Positions 1-16,459 of a stretch of DNA of 64,000 nt are shown in pieces; within the stretch, counting starts at the first letter, position 1; every line of letters starts with the position of its first letter. Both the position numbers and the translations under genes were made by a program. The stretch lies in NCBI GenBank assembly GCA_026026165.1, contig JAPEUD010000072.1, positions 1 through 64,000 of the forward strand, given 5' to 3'. This DNA is from Sarea resinae (taxonomy: Eukaryota). The notes beneath the pieces are model-generated. The model did not search any database. It had not been told where the DNA came from and saw only the letters and a program-made list of their open reading frames with translations.

Positions 1-155
1 CCAGCCAAATAGCTAAGATGCAACGCGGCCTGCAGTGCAGGCGAGCAGCGCCAGCGCAGCATAGAGGGTCAGAGGTAAGGCTAGGAGCACTAGAGGCAAT
101 GTTTTATCGCGTCTAACTAGTGGCAACTCTACTGCTGCAAGGCTACTTGGTTTAG

Positions 156-268
156 GCCAGCCTAGCCGGCTAAATAGCTGACAGGCAGAGCGAGCGCGCG
201 GCGCACAGAGAGTTTTTTTCCTTCCAGACAATCTAGCAATCTTTTCTTCTAGACTGCCTAGAAGTTTG
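156..268 (+). repeat. Left terminal direct repeat including palindrome CTTCTAGAC-T-GCCTAGAAG (246-264)
   Basis: 156-186 matches 5055-5085 at 23/31 positions, and 7 of the 8 differences are transitions. It is followed by AGAGAG, a T-tract and CTTC(C/T)AGAC. Confidence 0.7.
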
Positions 269-296
269 ATCGTCGAACAGCGACATTAAGCGACGT

Positions 297-3200
297 CTAG
301 GCTCGCTTAAGCTCTTGCTAAAGGTGCAGGATCACTTCGATCATCACTACTATAGCGTTGCTGACCCACTCTCCCTACACCAGCCAGATGTGCTGTTGCC
401 TGAGCCACTTGCTGTATCCTTCGAGGTCGCCTCGCTGGCCAAGAAATCCAGCCCTGCTGATCAGCTCCCACCCTCTCGCGCCGGCTGCCGCGTCGGCTGC
501 AGCGGTGCGCACGATTGGCACCAGTCGATTCAGCCACTGACAGCTAGCCTGAGTGTTAACTCTGGTGCAGCAATACCGCTAACTGATGCCGCATCGAAAG
601 CAGCTGTAGGTCTTCTCCTCTGAGTCCTCTTAGAACCAGATTTTCTGTCGGAAGCTATTGACAGCCTGCTTGCTGAGCGCACCCCGCTGCAGGCATTGGT
701 GCCAGCTATGCTCCTACCGCTCTGCCTGCCTAGCCCCTTCCTTGAGCCCCTCGGCCACCTAGCAGACAGCGCACCGCCCTTTGAGCTAGTCGAGTGCCTG
801 CTTGACAACGGCCTGCTGCCGCTCCGCTTTAGCCTCGCAGGTCTGCCACTCAGTCAGGCCCTCGCTGCATCGATCGCACCGCGCCGCCGTGCCTTAGTCG
901 ACCTCGCCACACCGCACCCCCTTTCTGTCAAGGTAGCCGCTTATAATCTGCCGCCAGCAGCCCTAAGTGGTGATAAATTCCCACATCGCCTGCTAGTCGA
1001 CAGTACGCTCTACGACAGCCGCCGCTGTGAGCTGGCCAGCCTCTACAAGCACGACAGCATCTACGTCCTCGCCAGCGCGCCTGGCCTAGCCTAACTCCTG
1101 CGCGAAGTCGATCATGCTATACAGCACCCTAACGTGCAGCGTCATCAAGATCCCGCCGTAGTCAACCCTAGTGCCGAGCGCGCTAGTGGCGACGATCCAG
1201 CCCTCTTCAGACATCCACTGCCTAAGCTAGCGCTCCTTCTCCTCTAATGTCGAGTGATAGTGGCCGCACTGTAGAGTCTCAGCCAAGGCCTTGCACGCCG
1301 CCCAGGTTCGGCAGTAGATCACCCCTTTCCCTTGCCGCCGCAGTCGCTGCTGCAGCTGCTGTCGACAGAGGTGCGCTGCGCTCTCAAGCAGCTAGCTATC
1401 TTTGCACCGCACTACTAGATAGCGGGTGCGCGGCCGGATCGTGCGAGCGCGAATGCAGCGCGCCACTAGCATCAGCATGCTGTCAGCTAGCTCCTGCTCT
1501 AGAGCAGGCGGCAATGTCGCGGTCAGTAGTATTATCAGGCACATCATTGTCTGCAGATGCTTGAGATCGTTAAGCCGCGGCCAGTAATAGTTAGCTGTGA
1601 ACGTCAGGTGACACTCGTCCACGACGATCTGCTGCAGCAGACTGTGCCGCTGCAGCGCTATAGCGTACGTCAAGAAACCCAACCCACTGGCGAGATCAGC
1701 GCTGACCACTACTACTGCAGCGAAGCTGCTATCGCTGTGCCTCTACTTGAGACTGTTAATGCCGACCCGCTGCAATCGGCCGACTAGATCGTTCACTAGA
1801 GCGCAGAACAGCACTACTACCACTGTCACTAGCAGCCCTTGCAGCCCTTTCTCCTGCCGCTGTTGCTTAAGCTAAGCTAGCAGCATAAACAGCAGGCTCT
1901 TCCTGCCTCTAGTAGGCAGCACTACTACAGTCGGCGTCTTATGTTGCAAGATCGCTTGCAATGCCACGCGCTGCTCTACTAACTTGAACTCCACTCGACT
2001 TAACCCTAGCAATTGCTGCATGCTAGTAACAACCTCCTCTAAGTCGACGTTAATCTCTTGCCTCAAACTATTATCATCCTCTAGCAGCTGAAACCGCTTG
2101 CGGCAGCCACAGCCTATCACTAGAACTCTTGTTTCTTCTCTCTCCTCTTGCTCCTCCTCTAGCAGCTGCTCCTCCTCTGCTTCCTGCTTGCGCTTTGGCT
2201 TTCCCTTAAGCTTAGGCTAGGACTCGCTCTGCTGCGCTGCACCAGCTAGGCTGCTGCCACTATCAAGCTGTAGGAATGCGTGCCACGCCTGACTCACTTA
2301 GCCGAACGCGTTAAGAGAGCGCGCGCTGAGATTCCAGACGATATCCCTAGAAACGCCATATCAAATTTGCCTGATAGCAGTGGTGTGCCTAGTCTGCAGC
2401 TTGAGTTTGTCCTCCTGCTCAAGCTGCAGCTCCTCTACATCCTTAGCCTTGTCCCTACAATGCAGCGCTTGCCTCTCGCTGGCAGCGAATTCCTTGCCCA
2501 CGAATTTCTAGCCGATCGTGATCGCTACATGTTGATAGTCCTGCGTGGTCAGCCGACATTTCAACCGCGTGGACGTCTCGCGGCTAAGGACCTAGGTCAG
2601 CCGCTCTGTCAGCCACAGCTGCCCTTTAGCCGTGCCCTAGATAAATTCATTGTCAAGCCCGCCCTCTAAGCTGACCGCGGTCTGCAGGTGGCTGTAGAAC
2701 GGCTGCATGTAGGCTAGGTAGACGACTATAAGCTGGCCGACTCGCTACAGCAGGAAGCGCAGCACTACCTTTAGGGTATTGTACTAGGCCTAGCTCTTAT
2801 AGTAGCGGGTCACTAGCACAACTAATCTATCTACCACGTAGACATTGCAATCCTGCAGCAGGCTGTTGCGATAGCGCACTGACAACTCCTTAGTGCTGCA
2901 GCTAGGCTAGCCCCTAGTTATATAGCAGCTAAAGAGTAGCAGCTTGAGAAAGGCCTGCACGCGCCAGCAGTAGTCCCTGACTAGGCCTAGTTCCTAGCTA
3001 GTGCTGTCGCGCTATTAGAGCGGTTTTTTGTCTTCTCTCCTTTCTTTCTTCTAGACTGTCTAGAAGTATTGAGCTGTGCAGGCGACGCGCGCCACTATCA
3101 AGGAGAGCCCCTGATCTAGCTGGTTCGCTAGATTGCTAAGGAAGGACTAATTCTGCTGCGTGAACGCTATGTCGTCCTTGATGCCAGCTAGGTTGACAGT

Positions 3201-4976
3201 GAAGCAGTCGCCTAGTTCGCGGCACTACATCAGCTCAGGCTAGAGGATAGCCTTAGCGGCCTTGATCGCCTGGTGCGCTATCTGCTAGAAGTAGGCGATC
3301 ACAATTAGCTTACTGCAGAAGCGTAGCGACTAAGCATCCTAGGCCTAGTTCGTTGTCGCTGTGCTTAGCTGCTGCTAGCCGATGTACTTAGCGTATGCAA
3401 GCAGGCTAATCATTGTGCTTATTAGGGTCAGCGAGCTGTCGGCTAGGAATATCTTACGCTGCCCTAGGAAGCGCTTCTGCTTAGCCTGGCTCTGCTGCTC
3501 TTGCGCGGCCGCTGGCAGCAGCACCTTGACCCTGATCACCTGCATGCAGTAGACCACCCTGGCCAGCTAGTAGGAGTAGCTTGTCGCTGTGTGCAGCCGC
3601 TTAGTAAGGGGGTCGATGCTAAGCACAGCGAGGAAGTAGACTAGCGCGCTGTCAAAAGGGTCTACTAGTAGTAGGTTAAAGATAAGCGCCTGCAAGAAGG
3701 CTAGCACTTGGTCGACCTGCAGGGCCTTGTCGCTATTAAGCTCAAGCGACTCCTAGACAGCCTGCAAGCGCTCGTTCTGCTCTGCTGTCAGATGCAGCAA
3801 TTTGTCGGCATCCTTTAGCCGCGCGTTAGGTGCGTGGGCAGCGAAGGTGCAGTAGGCGAAGACGCGCAAGCAATAGCAGATCAGACGCGCCTAATAGTTA
3901 GCATAGCGCACCTGAGCCTCTGCGGTCTGCAGCTGACCTAATAGCTTTAGGTGCACCTTAGTGCGCTTCTTGCTGCGCAGCCAGCGGCAGAGCTCAAGCG
4001 GTAAGGTAGCTAGCCTAGCCACGCAGCGCTCAATCATTAGTCAGGTGACCTTAGCGGCCTAGCTAAGGATCTAGTCTAAATCCTGCCGCTGCCGCTGCCG
4101 CCGCGGCCGCCTAAGTCGCTAGTTAGAGAGCTCGCTAGCGTAGAGAAGGTGAGCTATATTCTGGCGGCGCAGGTGGGCTAGCTAGCTAGTGCGACTAAAC
4201 CAGCTAGTGCGATTAGTCTTCTGCACCTCGCTCTTAGTTAGGGCCTGACTCTGCTTGTGCGCGGCCTGCTAAGCATTGAACTCGCGCTAGATCTAACTAG
4301 CTAGGTTGTTAGAGGCTGCTTTGCCTAGCCAATCATTATTGTAGCTCCTCTCTGCGTGCTCCTTTTCTGCTAGCTGCACTAGAAAATATCGCTGCAGCCT
4401 GCTAGTGAAGAAGGTCTGCACTAGAACCAGCTGCTAATTTAGCGAGTCCTCTTCTTCTTCTTTCTCCTCTTAATTAGCAGACTAGGCGTGCTGCTTATTG
4501 CTATGCTTCTGCATGATCTAGCGATTCGCCGTGCTAAAACTACAGTCTCAACAGGTAAAGCTGTTAGTAGGTGCCCCTAGAGTGGGAAATGCAGGGCAAT
4601 TTAGCGGTGGCAAAGGCACAGCATGCAGATCAAGTAGGCTGCAGCCTTAATACTGCGCTCTAAGCAGACGTCGCTCCTTAGCTAGCATTGCATGACTGTC
4701 CTTTAAGTAGCGGTCTATATTTTAAAGGGCGTAGCCATGTTGACAGCAGATTAGGACCTAATAGTTTGGCTTATAGTAGAATAATAACGATTGCGATCCT
4801 GATCTTAATCTTGATCTAGATCCTAATCTCTCTTGCTGCTTCTCTTGCTCCTCTTGCTCCTCTTGCTCCTCTTGCTGCTCTTGTTGCTCTTGTTCTTACA
4901 CCGCCTGCTGCAGCTGCTGCTGCTAGTTATTAAGGGCGGCGGCAGCGCCGCTGCAGGCGAAGTGCGTAGTTAGCAT
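297..4976 (-). pseudogene. RIP-inactivated large single-exon gene: Zn-finger (DUF3505-like) + putative tyrosine recombinase domain + RecQ-family helicase + Cys-rich C-terminus (telomere-linked-helicase-like)
   Basis: Manual translation: ATG at 4976, and every segment checked is in the same frame (4799, 2999, 2120, 1709, 1199, 320). Motifs: VLICCQHGYAL..DRYLKDSH; VVVLPTRGRKSL (Walker A, de-RIP LPTGGGKS); VVDECHL; LLTATLPP; VATSALGTRVDY; FAQELG*ARRAGE (QESGRAGR); C..QIISGYLD..RCDRC. Many in-frame TAG/TAA stops explainable as CAG/TGG/CAA transitions. The true stop may be 318-320 or 297-299. Confidence 0.88.
3048..3066. repeat. Internal perfect palindrome CTTCTAGAC-T-GTCTAGAAG
   Basis: 9-bp arms with a 1-nt spacer, preceded by a pyrimidine tract as in both terminal copies. 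Confidence 0.8.
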
Positions 4977-5054
4977 GCCTTAGCTCACTGTAATAACCAC
5001 CTCGATCCTCCTCCTTTAACCCTAAGTGACGCTTAAACTCTCCTAGTGGATTTC

Positions 5055-5146
5055 GCCGGCCAGGCTAGCCAAATAGCTAGCAGGCTAGGCAGGCGCAGTG
5101 TACATATATATAGAGAGCTTTTTCTTCTAGACTGTCCAGAAGTTTT
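5055..5146 (+). repeat. Right terminal direct repeat including palindrome CTTCTAGAC-T-GTCCAGAAG (5124-5142)
   Basis: Direct-repeat similarity to 156-268; the palindrome lies ~150 bp upstream of the ATG at 4976. Confidence 0.7.
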
Positions 5147-5258
5147 TTAAAATCTTTAAACAGCGGCTAGTAGATCAGACGCAAGCAAGCCTTCTCCTTT
5201 CCTTAGAGCGCTGCGCAGGCGCCAGGGGCGAAGTGCGCTGTTGGTCTGCCTTAGCTAG

Positions 5259-5926
5259 CTGCAATCACCTCTCGATATACCTTGAACCCTAAGTAACCCC
5301 AAGGGACAGGGCAACCCTAAGGGTGGGAAATCGACGCTGGCGGGCCAGCGATCGAACGAACAGAGGGCGGGCGCGCGGGCGAGGATCGAGGCAGCTATCG
5401 AGGTGGTCAGGTCGGTGGGCAGAGGGCGCTTTTTGACAGGCGCGAAAACACCGTCGCGAAAACACCGTCGATTCTCGCTTGGGGCTCGCTTCGATGCCTT
5501 AAAGAGGCGAAGATCGGCGAAAATCGACGAGAAGACGGTGTCTTCGGCCGCTGCAATGCGGTTAGGCCGCACTCCGCCACGTCCGCAAGCCAGTCCACCG
5601 CCACCTCCTCGACAAGCAAGTCCGCTACAACCGCCTTATTCAGCCCCCACTCGGCGGCCACTGCTTCCGCGAGCCCAAGACGTGCCAGAAAGAAAGGTAA
5701 AGGCATCTAGTATCTGATCGATCAGCGCTTACTTGTTGCACTAGTTGCTGCACGAGATCGTCTTATCCCACAAGCCGAGCATGAGGGCAAAAAAGCGGCG
5801 TTGAAGGCGGCGGTGAAGGCGGCTCGGCGGATAAGGCTAAACGTCAAGAGGAAGGCAAGGAAGAAGCAGGTCCAAGCCGAGAAGATGGCCAGACGAGAAA
5901 GCAACCTGTCCGGCGCGCTGGTCTAA
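5259..5926 (+). pseudogene. Degenerate basic (K/R- and Pro-rich) orphan ORF, 5' end apparently disrupted near the helicase element
   Basis: The frame of ORF 5403-5717 extends upstream through RIP-type stops. A further basic segment (KAALKAAVKAARRIRLNVKRKARKK) ends at TAA ~5926. Confidence 0.3.
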
Positions 5927-6929: not shown

Positions 6930-8765
6930 ATGCCTCCAAAACGTCCATCTAATTCTGAACGAGAAGGTCCAAGAAAGAAGATTGAGACCAGATCTGCTGC
7001 AAAACCCAGTACCGAAAAGGCAACGTAAGACACCTTTGCTGCAATTCCTCATCTCATTAGCTGATCTACAAAAGTCCGGCCGTTCACGAGGATGATGAAC
7101 ATGTCATCTCGCTCGCCGGAACATTTACCAACATCCCAACCTTGCGGCCAGACGAGCTTCACTTGGTATTTCCGGATCTGCACCAAAAGCAGCAGCTCAT
7201 AGACCTGTGGTATGTTTTCACGAAAAAGCCGGCCACGCCAGCAGGTCGAGAGCGACGAGTGCAGTGGTTCGCCGTGCGTAACTAGCCCGCCCTAAGATTC
7301 AAAGCTTCTGCTAACCCGCTCAAACAGGTACGGAAGCTCTCCATTGAATTCCTTGAGACATGCTTCCAGGACGAAAATCCAAACCCAACTCCTTGTGCTG
7401 TCGCCGTGGCTATTAGAGCGGTGTCAACCTTTCGTCGTTTGGCGATAGCGGCAAAGGCAGCCTTAAACTTCGAACTATGGTCCGAATGTATCCGCCGCGA
7501 GATGGACTATCTTATGATTCTGGAGATACATCGTAAGCCGTCCTTCTTCTCCTAATAGGGCTAGGGCTAACTCCTTAGACTTTGGAAAGGAGCAGTACCA
7601 GCGATGCCGTTACGTGGATCACTTCTTTGATCAAGCATACCAAGAACTAGTATCGCAGCCCGTTGCACCCTCGCCACTAATGGCGGAAGCTAGCACACAG
7701 GTCGTGGCGCCTGCAGCGTCGACTTACGAGGAAATAATCAAGGCCGCTGAGATTAAGGCAAAGCCGTTTGCAGGGAACGTGATTGGTTACAATGATGCAA
7801 AGATGGCCTTGGACGAGGGGGTGGTTTTTCCTACCCTATTTGCATACTTAGCGTCTATGGAAGATTGCGAATCGTCCGGCATTCTATTGTACGGGCCTCC
7901 GGGCACAGGGAAGACAATTCTGGCGCATAACCTCGTGGGCTTGGCTGTGCACAAATTCTATCAGATCCGCATGGGGGATGTACTCACCAAATACGTCGGC
8001 GAAACAGAGAAGTCGGTTGCCTTTACTTATTGGGTTGTAAAAACTGACAAGATGGAATAGAATCGTGAGAGCAATATTCGATGTTGCCCGGGCGAATAGG
8101 CCAAGTGTCCTGTTCATCGACGAGGCCGAAGGGTTGTTTGGTACCCGCAGCGACTCGGACAACAAGGCGTTTTCCTCGGCAAAGGATGCAATTTTAACAG
8201 AGTGGAATTATCTCCCGGCAGATGTCAGTGTGATTGCTTGTACTAATTTGCCATGGATGATCGACGCCGCTTTTTCACGAAGGTTAAGCGTAAAGATCTT
8301 CGTCGGTCTCCCAAGCACATCCGATATTGCCGAGATGATCAAGGACAAGATAGCTAAGATGCCCACTGTGATTGCCGATAGAGATGTTGAGCAGCTCTCC
8401 AAGAAGCTATTCGGCCTCACTGGCCACGACGTCGTCGTGTGTGTAAAGAAGCTGCGGAACGCTCTTTTACATGATCTCTAGAGAGCAGAGTTCTTCCGCC
8501 TTGTAAGTCCTGGCCCAACGATACCACATTCGGTGATTGACTATTCAACTAGAACGAGAGGATTGGAAAATATCAACCATGTGCAAGCCATGTGCTCGGG
8601 GCATTCCGCTCTGCCTTCTGAGACCTTCTGCCGAGCCGTGTTGAAATTCGCAACCTCACTATCAAGCAAGTGTCGGACGTCTTCCTTGCCGCGAAGCCCA
8701 GCATCTCCAAAGACACCATGGAGCAGTACCTATCATATGCAAATAAAACGGGTGCAATACACTGA
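6930..8765 (+). pseudogene. Vps4-like (meiotic-clade) AAA+ ATPase with premature stops
   Basis: Spliced model with five introns, starting MPPKRPSNSE. Motifs GILLYGPPGTGKT, KYVGETEK, VLFIDEAE, CTNLPWMIDAAFSRR, GLTGHD, and a Vps4-like tail (YQPC...KPSISKDTMEQYLSY). In-frame stops TAG 8479-8481 and TGA 8619-8621. Confidence 0.78.
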
Positions 8766-10787: not shown

Positions 10788-12424
10788 ACTTTCTGAATGC
10801 TACAGTTGAATCAGATGAACAGAATTGACTTGAGGTTCGGAAATCAATACTAATAAACACCACGCTTCGACAGGCTAACGAATCCTATACCAATCACTAT
10901 ACGCTTTGTGCTATCGTGAAACTCAAATCGTCGTTTCAAGGACATGGGTTGGTCTCGTCCCTATTGACAAAACTTTGGGACTGAAAGTCATGGCAGATCT
11001 TCACTCTAACCTGCATCGTGAATTTAAGGATGAGGATCAAATTTGTAGGGCGCTTCAACAATATCTTCGTGTTCCTGTACTGACAAGTGCTCAGGGGGAG
11101 CTCGACGTGGATAGAGTGCGGTGAGGGTCTCGTCCCCTGTGGGAAGCTCTTATTCGACTGAGGCATGCGTCCTAATAAGCCCTCTGCAAGACTCTCAACC
11201 ATCACCTACAGGCGGCGCCAACGCGTCCGAGGAGGACCTGCACGCAGACATAAGTACAGGTTAGGAAGTTGGCGATTTCCGATGGTCTCAAGCTAATCCC
11301 GCTGGCAGGCGAGACCTCTCACCCCGCGCCATCTTCACCTAGTCCTTGTACCTGGCACGATGGCTACGTTTCGTATCTGGCTTATTATCCAGACTCCCGG
11401 ATCACCGAGTTTGAATACTACATGGCGGTAGTGGAAACAAGACTGAGGTTGAATAGACAGATGCGAGATCTAAAGGTGCCTATGTCTCTGATGAGTGAAG
11501 AGGAGAGGGCTTAGATAAGAGCGAAATTGGAGCATATCAAGGCTATTCTGACGATGATGCTTGAGAAGATGTAAGGGGCTGGTCTAGACATCAAATGCTT
11601 ATGTAATTATTTATCGACAGATAAGAGATATAAAAGACGCAACTGATGCGAGAAAGGTATCGACGATACAAGGAAGGTGTTTGGCGTAGTTCTATCGGAT
11701 CCAACCAATCTATCTGATCTATCTGATCGACAGCTGTCAATAAGATTCACTTCCGCCCCACGTCCCTTAAAGTCGCCACGAAAGTGAATCATGTTAATAG
11801 AGGCGGCTTGCTTCTACTTATCTATCTACATCCTACTCTGTTCCTCTTATTTCTTCTCTCGCCTTGTCTCTCACTTTGTGTCTGACCTCCTCTCTTTCCT
11901 TCTTAGCCAGATGACCTACAAGTATTGACTTGCATCAACCCTTTATCGACGTCTAGAGACTTGTGCGACCTGTCGTTTTGTGATCCAACCTTATAAGTCC
12001 TTCCTCCTAGTGAACATCTATCGCAATTAGGTCATCTGTGGCCTGACGTCCTAGTAAGTCAAGGCTTTGATGCACTTATTCACGACTAGCTAATACAGCG
12101 TTAAGCCTCACCTCTTGTTGTCCTTCTTATGCGTAGTATCTTCTCTACTCCTCAGATCTTCCTACTAACGCAAGTATTCGTGCAACAACAGTGAGTGGAC
12201 TGAACGACAATCTAGCCCTCTAGTCTAGCTAGGCTGTGGTACTTTGAGTCTGACTCTATTCTAGGTGGTGATCTACTTCTATAAGCGAAGCTTAACATTA
12301 TCGCTAACTCAAACGACGATTCTCACAATATGCGATAGATATTCTGACTGAGGTTAACGATAAGCACTTCTAACATCCGACCTTAAGCGCTCTAGTACAT
12401 CGTGTAGGGTTACTGAGTCCCACT

Positions 12425-13080
12425 ATGATAACGCCTGCCACCTTTGAAGACAGCTAGAAGGGAGTTAAACACTTTAGGAATCTCCCTAGCGCAAATCCAT
12501 TCTGGCCGACAGGCTGTAAAGCCTCTAACAAACGTTATGCCATCGCTAATACTTTCCGTCCAGGCCAGGATATCCCGGACCTGACGTACAGAAAATAGGA
12601 TGACCGCTGTAGAGAGGTCTGTCAAGAGGAGGACATTATCCGCGTGATAGCACAAAGGCAGTACTTCGTGAGCCACATGCTAAGCGACACAGAGATTGTC
12701 ACTAAGATACTTCCAGATCGAATTGGTTTAGAGCCGGACAAAGACTTTTTCAGAGCTTGGCGCGGAAAGATCATAGGCTGGCAAGCAAATTAGCAGTCAG
12801 TCATACTAAGTTAGGTCTTAAAAGGGGTCGAAGAATGCGTTGAAGCGACAGGCGGCCTTGAGAAATAGGCCACTTCTAGGATTGAACAAAGGTACAGGGT
12901 GTACAAAGCCTACTTTCTCTAGGATCCAAAGTTCAGCAGCGTGAATTTTTTGCGGCCAATAATTCCGGGAATCGACATCGATAGGATTTTTGCAAACCAG
13001 GAACAGCCACAAGTGATTTGGCAGAGATACATTTTATTGTCGTTTGTTTACATCTGCAAAGACACTTATAAGTTCTGCAT
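12425..13080 (+). pseudogene. RIP-degraded orphan reading frame
   Basis: Protein-like frame MITPATFEDS*KGVKHF...DKDFFRAWRGKIIGW...FLRPIIPGIDIDRIF, interrupted mainly by TAG codons. Product unknown. Confidence 0.4.
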
Positions 13081-13847
13081 ACTACAAAAGGACCTTAGCG
13101 ACTACTAACGCATTAACAAGACATCGAACGAATGGCTACAGCAGAGCTTAATGCCAGATATCGTCGCACTTGAACTCAGTGGCACTGACCGCATCCCTGT
13201 TCGCTGTGCAGGATTTTTTGACCAAGGACAGAGGAAGCAATTACAGCCTACTGCAGGAAAGCCAGCGCTTGACTTGTCTGATCTAGATTAAGTAAGTTAT
13301 ATCTTTATCTCTTAGCTTGACTTGTAGCTAAATGTCAGTCAATTTAGTGATAGGATTTAGTCAGGGCTAGTATAGTTGTGAATGTTCTTTTTAAGAGAAT
13401 AGTCCTTATTATAGAGACTGGCATAATGCAGAGCTACAATACATTCTCTAGTCAAATTTATTGATTCTCTCACGCTTGCGCATTGTCTTGTGTTAGAATT
13501 GGCCGATCTAACATGATTATCTGACTTGCCTAAATAGAAATTCAATGTAATCCAAAGGAGTTCAACATCTCTATAGGCTAAATTAGGGGGTAAACTAAGC
13601 CAGTTTATAGCCGAATTACTGCCTGAATCAGGCATTAATTCAGGCATAAACTGTTCTATATCTAGCTATATAAACACACTCCTTTTGCTGCTAATTAGTA
13701 GGGTAGAGAATTCAATATATAGCTGATTATTTTAACATCTTAACTCTACTCTGTTGTTGTTAAATATCTGCCTCTAGTTTCCTACACAAAATCTTCTGCA
13801 ATAGATTTTAATTAGGCTTTAAACCTATGCGCTTAGTATTAAGGTAC

Positions 13848-13943
13848 AAGGTTAGATCTAAGGTTAGATCTAAGGTCTAATCTAAGGTCTAATCTAAGGT
13901 CTAATCTAAGGTCAGATTCAAGGTCGGATTTAAGGTCAGATTT
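13848..13943. repeat. 12-bp tandem repeat x8 (AAGGTCNRATYY-like)
   Basis: aaggttagatct x2, aaggtctaatct x3, aaggtcagattc, aaggtcggattt, aaggtcagattt. The minus strand reads like an (E/K)SDL coding repeat. Confidence 0.85.
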
Positions 13944-15690
13944 ATAGTCTTCTCCTACACACCTTACAATCTTAAGTAGGAATAGAGCAGCACAACTAGT
14001 ATCAGCTCATTGAAATTAAGACTAAAGCTAAGGGTTGAAATCTCGAAACTTTTCATGTTTAAGAAAGTAAAAAGTATAACACTATTATCTAGCGTGGGTT
14101 TTAGCACTGTTATTAGTTTTAGATACTAATATAGTCTCTATACTATTGTCGATCTCAGACACTATCACAGTCTCAGACACTATTATTAGTTCTAGATTAG
14201 GGTGCTAGTCTTGCTTAGAATCAAGAGGAACTGATCTTGTTGTGCCTAAGTCTAGCTGATTGTAGATTGCCTGATTATAAGCGGTAGATTAAAGGCTTTC
14301 TAAACCTAGTTAGCGACGTCAGATTATTATTCTCTTAGGAGGCAACCTATATACTCACAGAGGGCCTTCTGCGGCGCGAAACCTAGCTACTAGCGGTGCT
14401 TTAGCATATTTATAAGGCCTAGGGCTAGTTGTGTAGACTGAATGCTGACTCCTGTCGCTAAATTGCTCGCCAAATAGACCTAGGTGCGTGGATCGCTTAA
14501 GGCAGTGATAAAATAGCTGGCTAGATTGCCTCCTACCACTATATTAGCTAAGCAATTCTAAAAAATTAAGTGGATGCAGTATGACAGTTCTATCTGTAGT
14601 AGGCTATACAGGATTTAAGAAGATCATATGCGGTAAACACTATCCGGACTAGGATAATATAGGTATGCTAAAAATAGAGATATGTCTTTGCTATAGGGAT
14701 TCCCCTGCAGAAATCTCCTAAAGAAGTTAAATCTTGTCCCTAGGAACTGTCCTTGTGCTCTCAGCCTACAGGGCCTGTATTGTGCCTTTTAGTACCTCCT
14801 TAGTCGTCTTCCTGCTAGGAATAGCATCTTGTCTTTCTGTTTGCTCCGCTTCTACTCCTGCCACCCCTAGAGTTCGCCTCTCTGCCTTTTAATCTTTAGA
14901 AGGCGTCTTATGTATCTCAACTTCACAATCCTTAATCCTACCCTACGCTAGGGCAGAACCTTAGGCTCGCTAGAAAGTATAGGTTATTTGAAGGACAAGA
15001 CACAAGAGCTTAAGGTTGCAGCCTCCTGCTTGTCGTCAGACATCAACGTCCTCTAGGCGTAGAAATACGTTTCAGTACCCTACATCCACCTTTAGCACCT
15101 TTAGGTGTTTGAAACTTGATTGTCACAGAAGCAAGGGTTAATTTGAGAACGCGACCTAAGGACCTGAGGTTGCAGCCTCTTGTTTGTTGTCGCATATCAA
15201 CGTTCCCTAGACACTTTAAAAGCGTTCCAGTACCTAAACTTTTGTGCTTGATGGTTTCTTGAGGGCTCTTAGAGATCCGTGGCAGTGACGGCATTAAAGC
15301 ATAAGAGCATCAGGTTAACGTCTCCTGCTCAAAAAGCTTTGACTACTTGCCTCCTAGACATTATTCTGGGCGCCGCGGATCGAAGAGATGCGAGTCTAAG
15401 TCCGATCTGCTTAGCACCATAGTCAGTCCTTTTGCTTAAATTTTCTGGGCAGAGAAAACTAACCCTACAAATAGTCGACCGCATCGTCAATCCCTGGTAT
15501 AGTCGACCGCATCAGCAAACCCTGGTACTAAGCCGCCACTGTCCGGAAATATCCCTGGGGCTATTATCTAGACAACACGCCCTCAAGCTGATACCGAAAT
15601 CAACATTCTATCACTAAAGGTAGTGAGTTTCGTCAGATTGTGTCTCTAGACTGTGGATCGCGCTACTTTGTTAGGCTTCTGATTTGGATC

Positions 15691-15856
15691 GAGTTGGGCA
15701 GTCTCTAAACTGCCTGTCCTAGCCGTGTCCAACGTGCTAAGTTAAGCCGTCTCTTTGCGGCTAGAGTTGGGCAGTCTTATTATACTGCTTGTCCTGGCCG
15801 TGTCCAACGTGCTGAGTTGAGCTGTCTCTTTACAGCTCGAGTTGAATAGTCTCTAT
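15691..15856. repeat. ~74-bp tandem repeat, 2.2 copies
   Basis: GAGTTGGGCAGTCT...GCCGTGTCCAACGTGCT units start at 15691, 15764 and 15839 (partial). Confidence 0.85.
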
Positions 15857-16459
15857 CACTAACAAGGCGCAATCTAGGACTTTGTAGGTGTCGTGGGCGG
15901 CTTATGTAGGCTTGAGCTGTTTTGCCCTATGCTGGATTTCTCTTGAAGCTCTCTATAAGTGGCTTTGTAGGTGTTGGTTCTTATCGCTGTTATATTGTGA
16001 TTCCTTTCTAATCGCTTGACAAGTGGCTGTGTAGGTGTTTCGCCGAGTACAGGTTGGTGGTCATAGAGCGTCATATTCAGGAGGATACCTCCCCAAATAT
16101 TCACCACCCTCTCATCTTAACCTTGCTTCCTTCACTTCACCACCTCTATCTCGCTCACCTTCGCTCTCAAACTCCCATCCTCTTATCTTATCACTATCCT
16201 CACTATCCTTATCATCTTTACCATCCTCACATCTTCTCATCCTCTCATCTCTAGCATCCTCATCGCTCATCGCTTTCATCCTTTCCGATCATCATCAGCT
16301 CGATAGACCACGGTCGCCACAACGCGCTCGTTATTATATCCTCTGCAAAGGTTCGAAATAGAGGTTGGACAGACGACAAGGCTGTATCGGCGACAGAAAA
16401 CTCAAGTCTTTTCAAGGATTTGTCTCAAGCACAGCTCCGAAAGAAACGATTTCTAAGGT

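Follow-up and report, generated by a model that had tools for sequence, protein, structure and literature searches.

Genes for telomere-linked RecQ helicases (TLH) are known from Magnaporthe oryzae, Fusarium oxysporum, Metarhizium, Ustilago and Schizosaccharomyces pombe. In the passages of 10.1101/2024.02.27.582403 that deal with TLH proteins, a pair of C2H2 motifs at the N-terminus is followed by a TLH domain of ~250 aa and then by a RecQ helicase, and those on F. oxysporum report TLH-containing regions (TLHcr), either isolated or arrayed, that are bordered by telomere repeats at each end. Blocks of helicase-associated repeats (HARs) surround the M. oryzae TLH gene, according to the passages on these repeats in PMC1635262; some of them contain TTAGGG, and HAR-D has a conserved imperfect palindrome of 23 bp. 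The Y' element of Saccharomyces is summarised in parts of PMC1635262 and PMC4522978 as a subtelomeric helicase unit of 5-6 kb, single or tandem beside the telomere and amplified by recombination. In the present study we analyse a 64,000-nt stretch of Sarea resinae DNA (contig JAPEUD010000072.1, positions 1 to 64,000; hereafter the window), which begins with a hypermutated TLH gene and short palindromic repeats around it.

The locus had been singled out from its letters alone as a candidate for a new kind of self-mobilising element, delimited by direct repeats and by a 19-bp palindrome that would serve a tyrosine recombinase (YR) or a telomere resolvase; we refer to this proposal as the original prediction. 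Two groups of YR-encoding elements form the background to it. Cryptons are dispersed fungal DNA transposons with a YR; they are not known to carry a RecQ helicase or to be linked to telomeres. DIRS-like retroelements likewise carry a YR gene, and one of their repeats is internal and related to those at the ends. We consider it probable that positions 1-5400 are a dead TLH subtelomeric repeat unit, in which the palindromic repeats are lineage-specific junction repeats associated with the TLH gene and are not shown as transposon termini. The locus would then be ordinary in itself, another degraded TLH subtelomeric repeat with lineage-specific flanking repeats. The wider interest lies in the TLH domain, which is present in thousands of fungal proteins and, in a structure model, shows a YR fold with an Arg-Lys-Arg-His-Tyr pattern.

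The degraded TLH gene

The open reading frame (ORF) lies on the minus strand, and the features assigned to it are the following.

297..4976, minus strand: TLH pseudogene of 1559 codons plus the terminal TAG
4488..4784, minus strand: N-terminal C2H2-type zinc-finger region, Pfam OrsD (PF12013), residues 65-163
2241..3659, minus strand: helical lobe and TLH domain, the equivalent of protein fragment P0020
1068..2024, minus strand: RecQ-type helicase core, with motif I degraded to PTRGRKS (1896-1919) and a DECH box (1608-1625)
520..965 (approximate limits), minus strand: Cys-rich C-terminal region with CxxC motifs, from the translation and the family consensus

A search of 1.84 billion representative proteins with phmmer gave 5938 matches at E<=1e-3, the best of them P0001 (E 1e-178). 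Many homologs are 1400-1800 aa long and share one order of parts: OrsD, a conserved middle domain, DEAD/Helicase_C and a Cys-rich tail. OrsD was matched in the window copy at E 6.1e-8 (33.6 bits; threshold 26.6) and in five of six long homologs, and DEAD and Helicase_C were found in all six. Helicase_C is weak in the window copy (E 0.012 at 1071-1355), and a Pfam scan of the correct frame returned nothing beyond these two families. Compared with PDB sequences by phmmer, the helicase core matched RECQ5 (5lb5_A, E 1.1e-14), BLM (3e-9), WRN (4e-8) and Escherichia coli RecQ (7e-5). Matches to RecQ_Zn_bind in several homologs were weak and below threshold. The TLH-domain region of the window frame aligns with P0001, P0002, P0003, P0005, P0007 and P0013.

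By homology, then, the ORF is a copy of a TLH gene, and the published TLH architecture (C2H2/OrsD, TLH domain, RecQ) takes the place of the new kind of mobile element that had been proposed. It is the only TLH copy within the window. The original prediction had also likened the internal palindrome to the internal repeat of DIRS elements, while remarking that a reverse transcriptase was lacking. The remark holds, with neither reverse transcriptase nor RNase H detected by Pfam in the correct frame (E<=10) or in 36 homologs, and the analogy fails for that very reason.

The TLH frame is interrupted by 59 in-frame stops (48 TAG, 8 TAA and 3 TGA) and by no frameshift. With the same six homologs as tblastn queries it was recovered in a single frame, from ~4781 to ~312. 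A frameshift near 4040 was considered and ruled out; the site holds a TGA, and the tblastn alignment passes it in one frame. The stop at which the original prediction ended the gene, TAG 299-297, is one among many in-frame TAGs, yet P0007 and P0013 end within ~10-20 codons of it.

Across six homologs the in-frame TAG codons pair with Trp 49 times, with Arg 30 times and with Gln 21 times, and the two close fragments P0042 (83% identity) and P0048 (89%) have Trp, Arg or Gln at the stop positions of the window copy. The differences between these fragments and the window are mainly E/K, P/L, R/Q, G/R, G/S and D/N, that is, of transition type. The element has 99 CTAG sites where 20 are expected, and 4 CCGG sites where the expectation is 28. 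GG, CC and CG are depleted, with an observed/expected ratio of 0.56 for GG and of 1.30 for TA, and TA/AT is 1.5-1.9 in the element and 0.3-1.0 over most of the window. To judge by this substitution pattern, the TLH copy is inactivated through C->T/G->A hypermutation like that of repeat-induced point mutation (RIP). The RIP-like signature stops at ~5300-5400, and would imply a duplication in the past. A reading of TAG as a sense codon was ruled out: TAG pairs with Trp, Arg, Gln and many other residues and is not abundant elsewhere in the window, and because TAG replaces such mixed residues an alternative genetic code is excluded.

A second RIP-like block lies at 12001-16000 (GC 0.41-0.44, TA/AT 1.2-1.5, 19-25 CTAG per 2 kb). 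Its six frames, read through stops, gave no Pfam match, and the palindrome is not found there.

Palindromes, direct repeats and telomere-like motifs

The repeats around the gene are listed below.

246-264: palindrome copy 1, CTTCTAGACTGCCTAGAAG, 33 bp past the TAG at 297-299
3048-3066: palindrome copy 2, CTTCTAGACTGTCTAGAAG, within the ORF, where residues 637-643 read F-stop-T-V-stop-K-K
5124-5142: palindrome copy 3, CTTCTAGACTGTCCAGAAG, 148 bp 5' of the ATG, with a TATATATA run ~10 bp away on the gene strand
221-239: decayed palindrome copy adjoining copy 1, within repeat family D4 (217-242, 69% identity to the reference copy)
5154-5173: possible weak extra palindrome copy beside copy 3, aligned to copy 1 in a transition-tolerant alignment
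148..279, minus strand: downstream copy of the direct repeat, beginning 18 bp after the stop
5047..5187, minus strand: upstream copy of the direct repeat, holding palindrome copy 3 and a TATA-like run (5105-5112)
3025..3069 (limits inferred), minus strand: probable in-frame insertion of ~45 bp, made up of the palindrome and a purine-rich tract
5020..5025, minus strand: telomere-like motif, TTAGGG when read along the gene, 49 bp before the ATG, repeat family D9
5287-5292 and 5315-5320, minus strand: further TTAGGG copies
5210..5297, minus strand: truncated second copy of the 5' end of the unit (TTAGGG, leader and the initial ~35 nt of coding sequence), duplicating 4942-5030

The original prediction described these repeats accurately. 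Its three full palindromes were recovered at the positions it gave, its partial fourth copy is supported by family D4, the pyrimidine tract it saw before each copy is a T-rich tract on the plus strand, and the ~150 bp between copy 3 and the ATG (4976-4974) measures 148 bp. Its pair of terminal repeats, 156-186 and 5055-5085, is identical at 23 of 31 positions, and the repeat extends further than had been seen, to ~130 bp that enclose the outer palindromes. Read on the gene strand, 279->148 and 5187->5047 align locally with a score of 94, against a mean of 32.8 and a maximum of 53 in 100 shuffles; the repeat is also visible in a MAFFT alignment.

Each of these near-palindromes consists of 9-bp arms around a single central base (19 bp, odd centre), and since the central base is the same in all three, they stand in direct orientation. 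The decayed copy at 221-239 matches the palindrome at 13 of 19 positions, with differences that are mostly transitions. It is this decayed copy, not copy 1, that pairs with copy 3 in a transition-tolerant alignment. A degenerate pattern allowing <=3 mismatches has six matches in the 64-kb window, which are the three sites read on both strands; the palindrome is confined there to the TLH unit. Dinucleotide-preserving shuffles gave an expectation of 0.10 matches (standard deviation 0.41), and none of 100 reached six. That the palindromes are a chance product of low-complexity hypermutated DNA is effectively refuted by these shuffles and by the repeat alignment, for although CTAG is fivefold over-represented (99 against 20) and the palindrome has two CTAG or CCAG units, the similarity extends through the ~130-bp direct repeat and, for the internal copy, into a 23-28-bp match, and the motif is missing from the second RIP-like block at 12-16 kb.

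Along the gene strand the order is a truncated unit start, a junction repeat, a full unit start, the gene and a second junction repeat. The two unit starts, 5297->5210 and 5030->4942, align with a score of 81 that none of 300 shuffles reached (blastn 74.7% over 75 bp, E 1.5e-5). The TLH gene points to the window edge, 297 bp away. A third unit start was sought to the left of the gene, where the best local alignment, which pairs ATG with ATG at its beginning, lay at 62->8; this candidate was dropped, 30 of 300 shuffles having equalled its score.

The internal palindrome is read in the same frame as copy 1. Alignments with homologs place it in a little-conserved linker that immediately precedes the catalytic lobe. 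Between conserved anchors this linker is 72 aa long in the window copy; among 39 homologs its median is 58 and its range 43-72, with an outlier of 160, and in the twelve close relatives of alignment A2 it measures 57-58 in ten, 52 in P0027 and 43 in P0001. The excess of 14-15 residues is equal to the palindrome plus the purine-rich tract, and from this the internal copy would be an in-frame insertion, or a conversion patch, of ~45 bp. An extended homology between the 3' flank and the internal site (364->19 against 3181->2846, score 80) was set aside, as beyond the core it does not exceed the shuffle mean. A word-index protein search with the linker region found no match among proteins of 99-315 aa.

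For comparison, 80 related loci (L001-L080) were gathered from metagenome contigs by means of a 12-sequence alignment. Thirty-nine are complete, with an ORF of at least 1200 aa, and because they include near-duplicates (L026/L027, L032/L033) the counts over these 39 are not fully independent. The original prediction had named beforehand the lack of the palindrome in homologous copies as evidence against its proposal, and none of the 80 loci carries it. These loci are distant, with at most ~68% nucleotide identity over coding alignments of at least 280 bp, so lineage-specific palindromic sites may still exist.

Unit boundaries, which had been expected at the palindromes, are marked in the family by another landmark, a strand-specific TTAGGG at the start of the TLH unit. 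The exact hexamer is present no more than 300 bp before the first ATG in 17 of the 39 complete loci, and CCCTAA in 1 of 39; by our own arithmetic chance alone would give ~3 loci with an upstream TTAGGG. In 13 of 39, degenerate repeats of telomere type, such as TTAGGG and TTGGGG, are seen 9-60 bp before the TLH start, always on the coding strand. Downstream, short TTAGGG runs are often present 24-250 bp past the stop (for example L031 at +70 and L051 at +24), and 11 of the 80 loci end in a (TTAGGG)n array, again always on the coding strand. Because these terminal arrays lie downstream of the ORF on the coding strand, the TLH genes point toward the telomere. Many loci have minisatellites between the stop and the telomere. 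Taken at sequence level, the upstream and downstream telomere-like motifs look like a family-wide unit border.

Three of the 39 complete loci have a perfect palindrome with arms of at least 8 bp in the 400 bp before the ATG, and two have one downstream. The density of such palindromes in the TLH flanks is 0.22 per kb upstream and 0.15 downstream, against 0.05 elsewhere in the loci. A perfect 28-bp palindrome is found at L014:179-206, 236 bp upstream of the TLH start, and L018 and L051 have perfect palindromes of 16-18 bp at about -250 to -260. Palindromes that recur within related loci were considered as a counterpart and rejected; they lie mostly in tandem minisatellites downstream of the ORF, and none has the pattern of flanks plus ORF. 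A flank motif is copied inside the ORF in 3 of 39 loci, apparently trivially. The upstream flank matches the downstream flank in 3 of 39, twice in inverted orientation and once over only 20 bp. In L026, and also in L027, the TLH leader and first codons (L026:1-316) recur inverted at L026:5288-5603 with 100% identity. This inverted copy lies ~580 bp past the stop; it could stem from a second unit in convergent orientation, from a chromosome end that folds back or from faulty assembly.

We read the palindromic repeats as junction repeats because the homologs lack the palindrome and because unit starts coincide with telomere-like motifs. On the minus strand, the unit would consist of TTAGGG, a short leader, the 1559-codon gene and a ~130-bp junction repeat, the last carrying two adjacent 19-bp palindrome copies, one intact and one decayed. 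The junction repeat would stand on both sides of the gene because the gene sits, as we propose, in a head-to-tail remnant; the order of parts fits such a decayed arrangement and agrees with the telomere-bordered arrays described for F. oxysporum in 10.1101/2024.02.27.582403. Such units would spread between chromosome ends as blocks, through homology-driven copying by unequal exchange or break-induced replication. The palindrome, from its position, may be a dyad-symmetric protein-binding site in the spacer between units. By analogy, an ancestral form of it that contained CCGG might have served a zinc-cluster factor. As TTAGGG leaves only ~50 bp before the ATG, this spacer would also have to hold the promoter. 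The copy within the ORF would be secondary, acquired by a variable linker at the protein surface through insertion or conversion of ~45 bp in frame.

Several points weigh against this reading. An insertion into the ORF is not predicted by a passive junction repeat or a promoter site, and hints that the unit has some mobility. Any function of the palindrome is hypothetical, and the TATA-like run does not appear in the downstream repeat copy in the MAFFT alignment. Left of the gene, 147->1 is no better than chance as a unit start, 30 of 300 shuffles reaching its score, and because it is unlike a unit start a full head-to-tail array is not claimed there. Canonical RIP leaves transitions without indels, a TpA excess and a shortage of CpA and TpG; here the classical RIP index (CpA+TpG)/(ApC+GpT) is 1.3-1.5 and not depleted, and the context looks CpG-biased, which is why we term the process RIP-like and do not claim RIP as proven. 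Finally, the data from this organism amount to one copy in a 64-kb window.

The TLH domain and recombinase models

The family consensus, HxTGGQPARGxEI ... YHKS ... YRHxA ... LQxxH........YGV, resembled a YR, and the idea of a recombinase was tested for that reason. P0020, a 496-aa fragment spanning the TLH-domain region, was modelled by AlphaFold2 with a 45-sequence alignment, giving a predicted local distance difference test (pLDDT) score of 82.1 and a predicted template modelling score (pTM) of 0.78. The top 17 rows of a Foldseek search against the PDB were all Cre, Xer or lambda integrase chains, at E values of only 0.02-0.1. In an exhaustive VIA-align comparison with 48,161 chains, ranks 1-9 were all YRs. 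The best was XerA 4a8e_A (Z 12.1, root-mean-square deviation 3.1, 168 residues), followed by XerA 5hxy_A (11.0), XerH 5jjv_A (10.7, 232 residues), XerD 5dcf_A (10.4), Cre 1kbu_A (10.3), a further XerD (9.8), Brujita Int (9.6), methicillin-resistant Staphylococcus aureus (MRSA) integrase (9.3) and IntI (9.2). Type IB topoisomerases (8.3) and the protelomerase TelA 4f43_A (6.4) scored lower. The hairpin ends envisaged in the original prediction are not favoured, this last value comparing with Z scores of 10-12 for Xer and Cre.

For comparison, the catalytic residues of Cre and lambda Int were located on their sequences. The positions of the TLH domain that would correspond to them are conserved among the 45 sequences: R243 in 44, K277 in 43, R362 in 41 and Y416 in 42, while position 407 holds His in 31 and Arg in 10 of them. 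The distance from His/Trp to Tyr is 9 in Cre, lambda Int and the TLH domain, and other spacings are comparable. The HxxR box has lost its first His, which is Leu in P0020, and the P0020 model has low confidence over the His-Tyr segment. P0020 residues 381-400 and their family equivalents form an acidic low-complexity insert of ~20 aa with pLDDT below 50, located between the Arg-His helix and the His-Tyr segment and without an equivalent in Cre or lambda Int.

Sequence comparison gave a different picture. No Pfam family was matched in the TLH-domain region of any of 36 homologs at E<=5, and the domain is without a family in the Pfam copy used; hhalign of the close-relative alignment A2 against Cre and lambda Int gave a probability of 0.1%, and phmmer of P0020 against PDB sequences returned nothing relevant. 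Neighbours in a protein atlas, at lead level (score 0.85), were an NDC10_II cluster and a Phage_integrase cluster. That the TLH domain folds as a tyrosine recombinase is well supported, and it may be catalytically active. A literature search in which few subscription journals were covered found no link between TLH and YRs or Cryptons, and an earlier description is possible; passages of PMC4522978 and PMC10799480 mention both topics without connecting them.

Any such activity would not extend to the window copy. Box I is mutated from R to C (2886-2921), the Lys is kept (2790-2810), the second Arg is changed to Q (2511-2540) and the H...Y segment (2352-2399) is broken by a TGA. With the box I Arg and the second Arg lost, nothing is active in this copy.

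Mobility of the family is another matter, and since the YR fold is real, recombinase accounts keep some weight. The broadest of them, which we hold as a tentative possibility, is that TLH genes, long regarded as subtelomeric helicase genes, have as their product an active YR of Crypton type joined to zinc fingers and RecQ, and that their units are self-mobilising and telomere-targeting, acting on TTAGGG and, in this lineage, on the palindromic junction repeat. If true, this would explain the telomere-repeat borders, the constant outward orientation and the arrays. If the TLH domain is catalytically active, the role of TLH genes and the spread of TLH-containing regions among chromosome ends become testable.

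A narrower account, which we regard as unlikely, has the YR of the family move TLH units by crossing over at the telomere repeat itself, with the palindrome at most accessory or regulatory. A circular or excised unit with TTAGGG would recombine with a terminal array and yield a telomere-flanked, outward-pointing unit. The fold and the catalytic-type residues suit such a mechanism, as do the strand-specific TTAGGG motifs before the ATG (13 of the 39 loci at 9-60 bp, 17 at up to 300 bp), the runs 24-250 bp past the stop in many loci and the downstream arrays that end 11 of 80. It would also accord with the F. oxysporum TLH-containing regions, telomere-flanked on both sides in the account given in 10.1101/2024.02.27.582403. 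The interstitial repeats are explained equally, however, by telomere healing followed by recombination-dependent copying, as is implied in passages of 10.1101/2024.02.27.582403 and PMC1635262. Moreover, 22 of 39 loci are without an exact upstream TTAGGG, some of the loci are near-duplicates, and no circle, junction or activity was seen.

The proposal closest to the original prediction makes the palindromes themselves the crossover sites of the YR, so that 5124-5142 would recombine with 246-264 to excise a circle of ~4.9 kb that re-integrates, the internal copy being a secondary or pseudo-site. That a recombinase acts on dyad-symmetric DNA is a legitimate idea, as the family has a YR fold and conserved catalytic-type residues: the best Z is 12.1 (XerA), the nine best of 48,161 chains are YRs, R243, K277, R362, H/R407 and Y416 are each kept in 41-44 of 45 sequences, and the His-to-Tyr spacing of 9 is that of Cre and lambda Int. 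The repeats do bracket one large gene, as had been claimed; the three palindromes are directly oriented, the outer ones lie within longer direct repeats, and the palindrome unit was apparently inserted once in the ORF. Perfect palindromes are also somewhat denser in TLH flanks than elsewhere in the related loci, with 5 in 27.3 kb against 5 in 101 kb. What tells against the palindromes as recombination sites is chiefly the related loci. The motif is in 0 of 80, 36 of 39 complete loci have no perfect palindrome (arms of at least 8 bp) within 400 bp upstream, and flanking direct repeats are not general (3 of 39 matches, two inverted and one of 20 bp). The recurrent TTAGGG landmark would lie inside the proposed circle, not at its edge. 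Arms of 9 bp with one central base are short beside known YR sites, the window copy has lost its box I Arg and second Arg, and kinship with YRs at sequence level was not detected (Pfam 0/36, hhalign 0.1%). We judge this account improbable, and less credible than crossover at the telomere repeat. The favoured reading remains that of junction repeats in a dead subtelomeric TLH unit.

Outside these repeats, a periodic CTCTTGCTC repeat of 9 to 12 bp at 4827-4922 gives rise to a Glu/Gln-rich tract near the TLH N-terminus. Just past the hypermutated block, at 5440-5470, there is a two-copy direct duplication of gcgaaaacaccgtc. The first seemingly intact gene after the TLH unit is at 7614-8481 on the plus strand, where two adjacent ORFs with GPPGTGKT Walker A look like exons of an AAA-type ATPase; the composition there is normal.

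Comparison with known systems

The simple YRs (XerA, XerD, XerH, Cre, lambda Int and IntI) have the two-lobed fold in common with the TLH domain model, with Z scores of 9.2-12.1 over 152-232 aligned residues. The TLH Arg in TGGQPARGxE resembles TGQRVGD of lambda Int, and the Lys of the beta-hairpin, the Arg-His of the helix and the His followed by Tyr at +9 are likewise shared. The TLH domain differs from them in the loss of the first HxxR His, the acidic insert of ~20 aa, the fusion to zinc fingers and a helicase, and a lack of profile similarity. Telomere resolvases turn a long perfect palindromic target into hairpin ends; of these, TelA (Z 6.4) ranks well below Xer and Cre, and the palindrome here has 19 bp and an odd centre.

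Among mobile elements, Cryptons are similar in their large ORF with a YR-type domain, in the absence of a reverse transcriptase and in short flanking direct repeats; the TLH domain differs in that its sequence has no detectable similarity to any recombinase family. From DIRS-like elements the unit differs in that reverse transcriptase and RNase H are lacking here and the repeats are direct, not inverted plus complementary. The Saccharomyces Y' element, as portrayed in parts of PMC1635262 and PMC4522978, is subtelomeric and helicase-encoding like the TLH unit, but its helicase is only distantly related to RecQ.

The described TLH genes and TLHcr have the same protein architecture, at ~1400-1800 aa. 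They are alike, too, in the telomere-like repeats at the unit border, in the orientation of the gene toward the telomere, which we see in the related loci, and in copies that are commonly mutated. The present copy differs from them in being fully degraded by transitions and known from a 64-kb window, and in a repeat and palindrome that are found in 0 of 80 related loci.

The HARs of M. oryzae were compared by description. In the HAR passages of PMC1635262 they are long tandem blocks and no copy inside the ORF is mentioned, whereas here there is one ~130-bp copy per side plus the copy in the ORF. Both systems nevertheless have short repeats at the TLH flanks, upstream of the start and on the side of the gene that faces the telomere, and in both, as far as those passages describe the HARs, some repeats carry telomere-like motifs and one has a conserved palindromic core. 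By this analogy, the palindromic repeats of the window look like the counterpart of the M. oryzae HARs.

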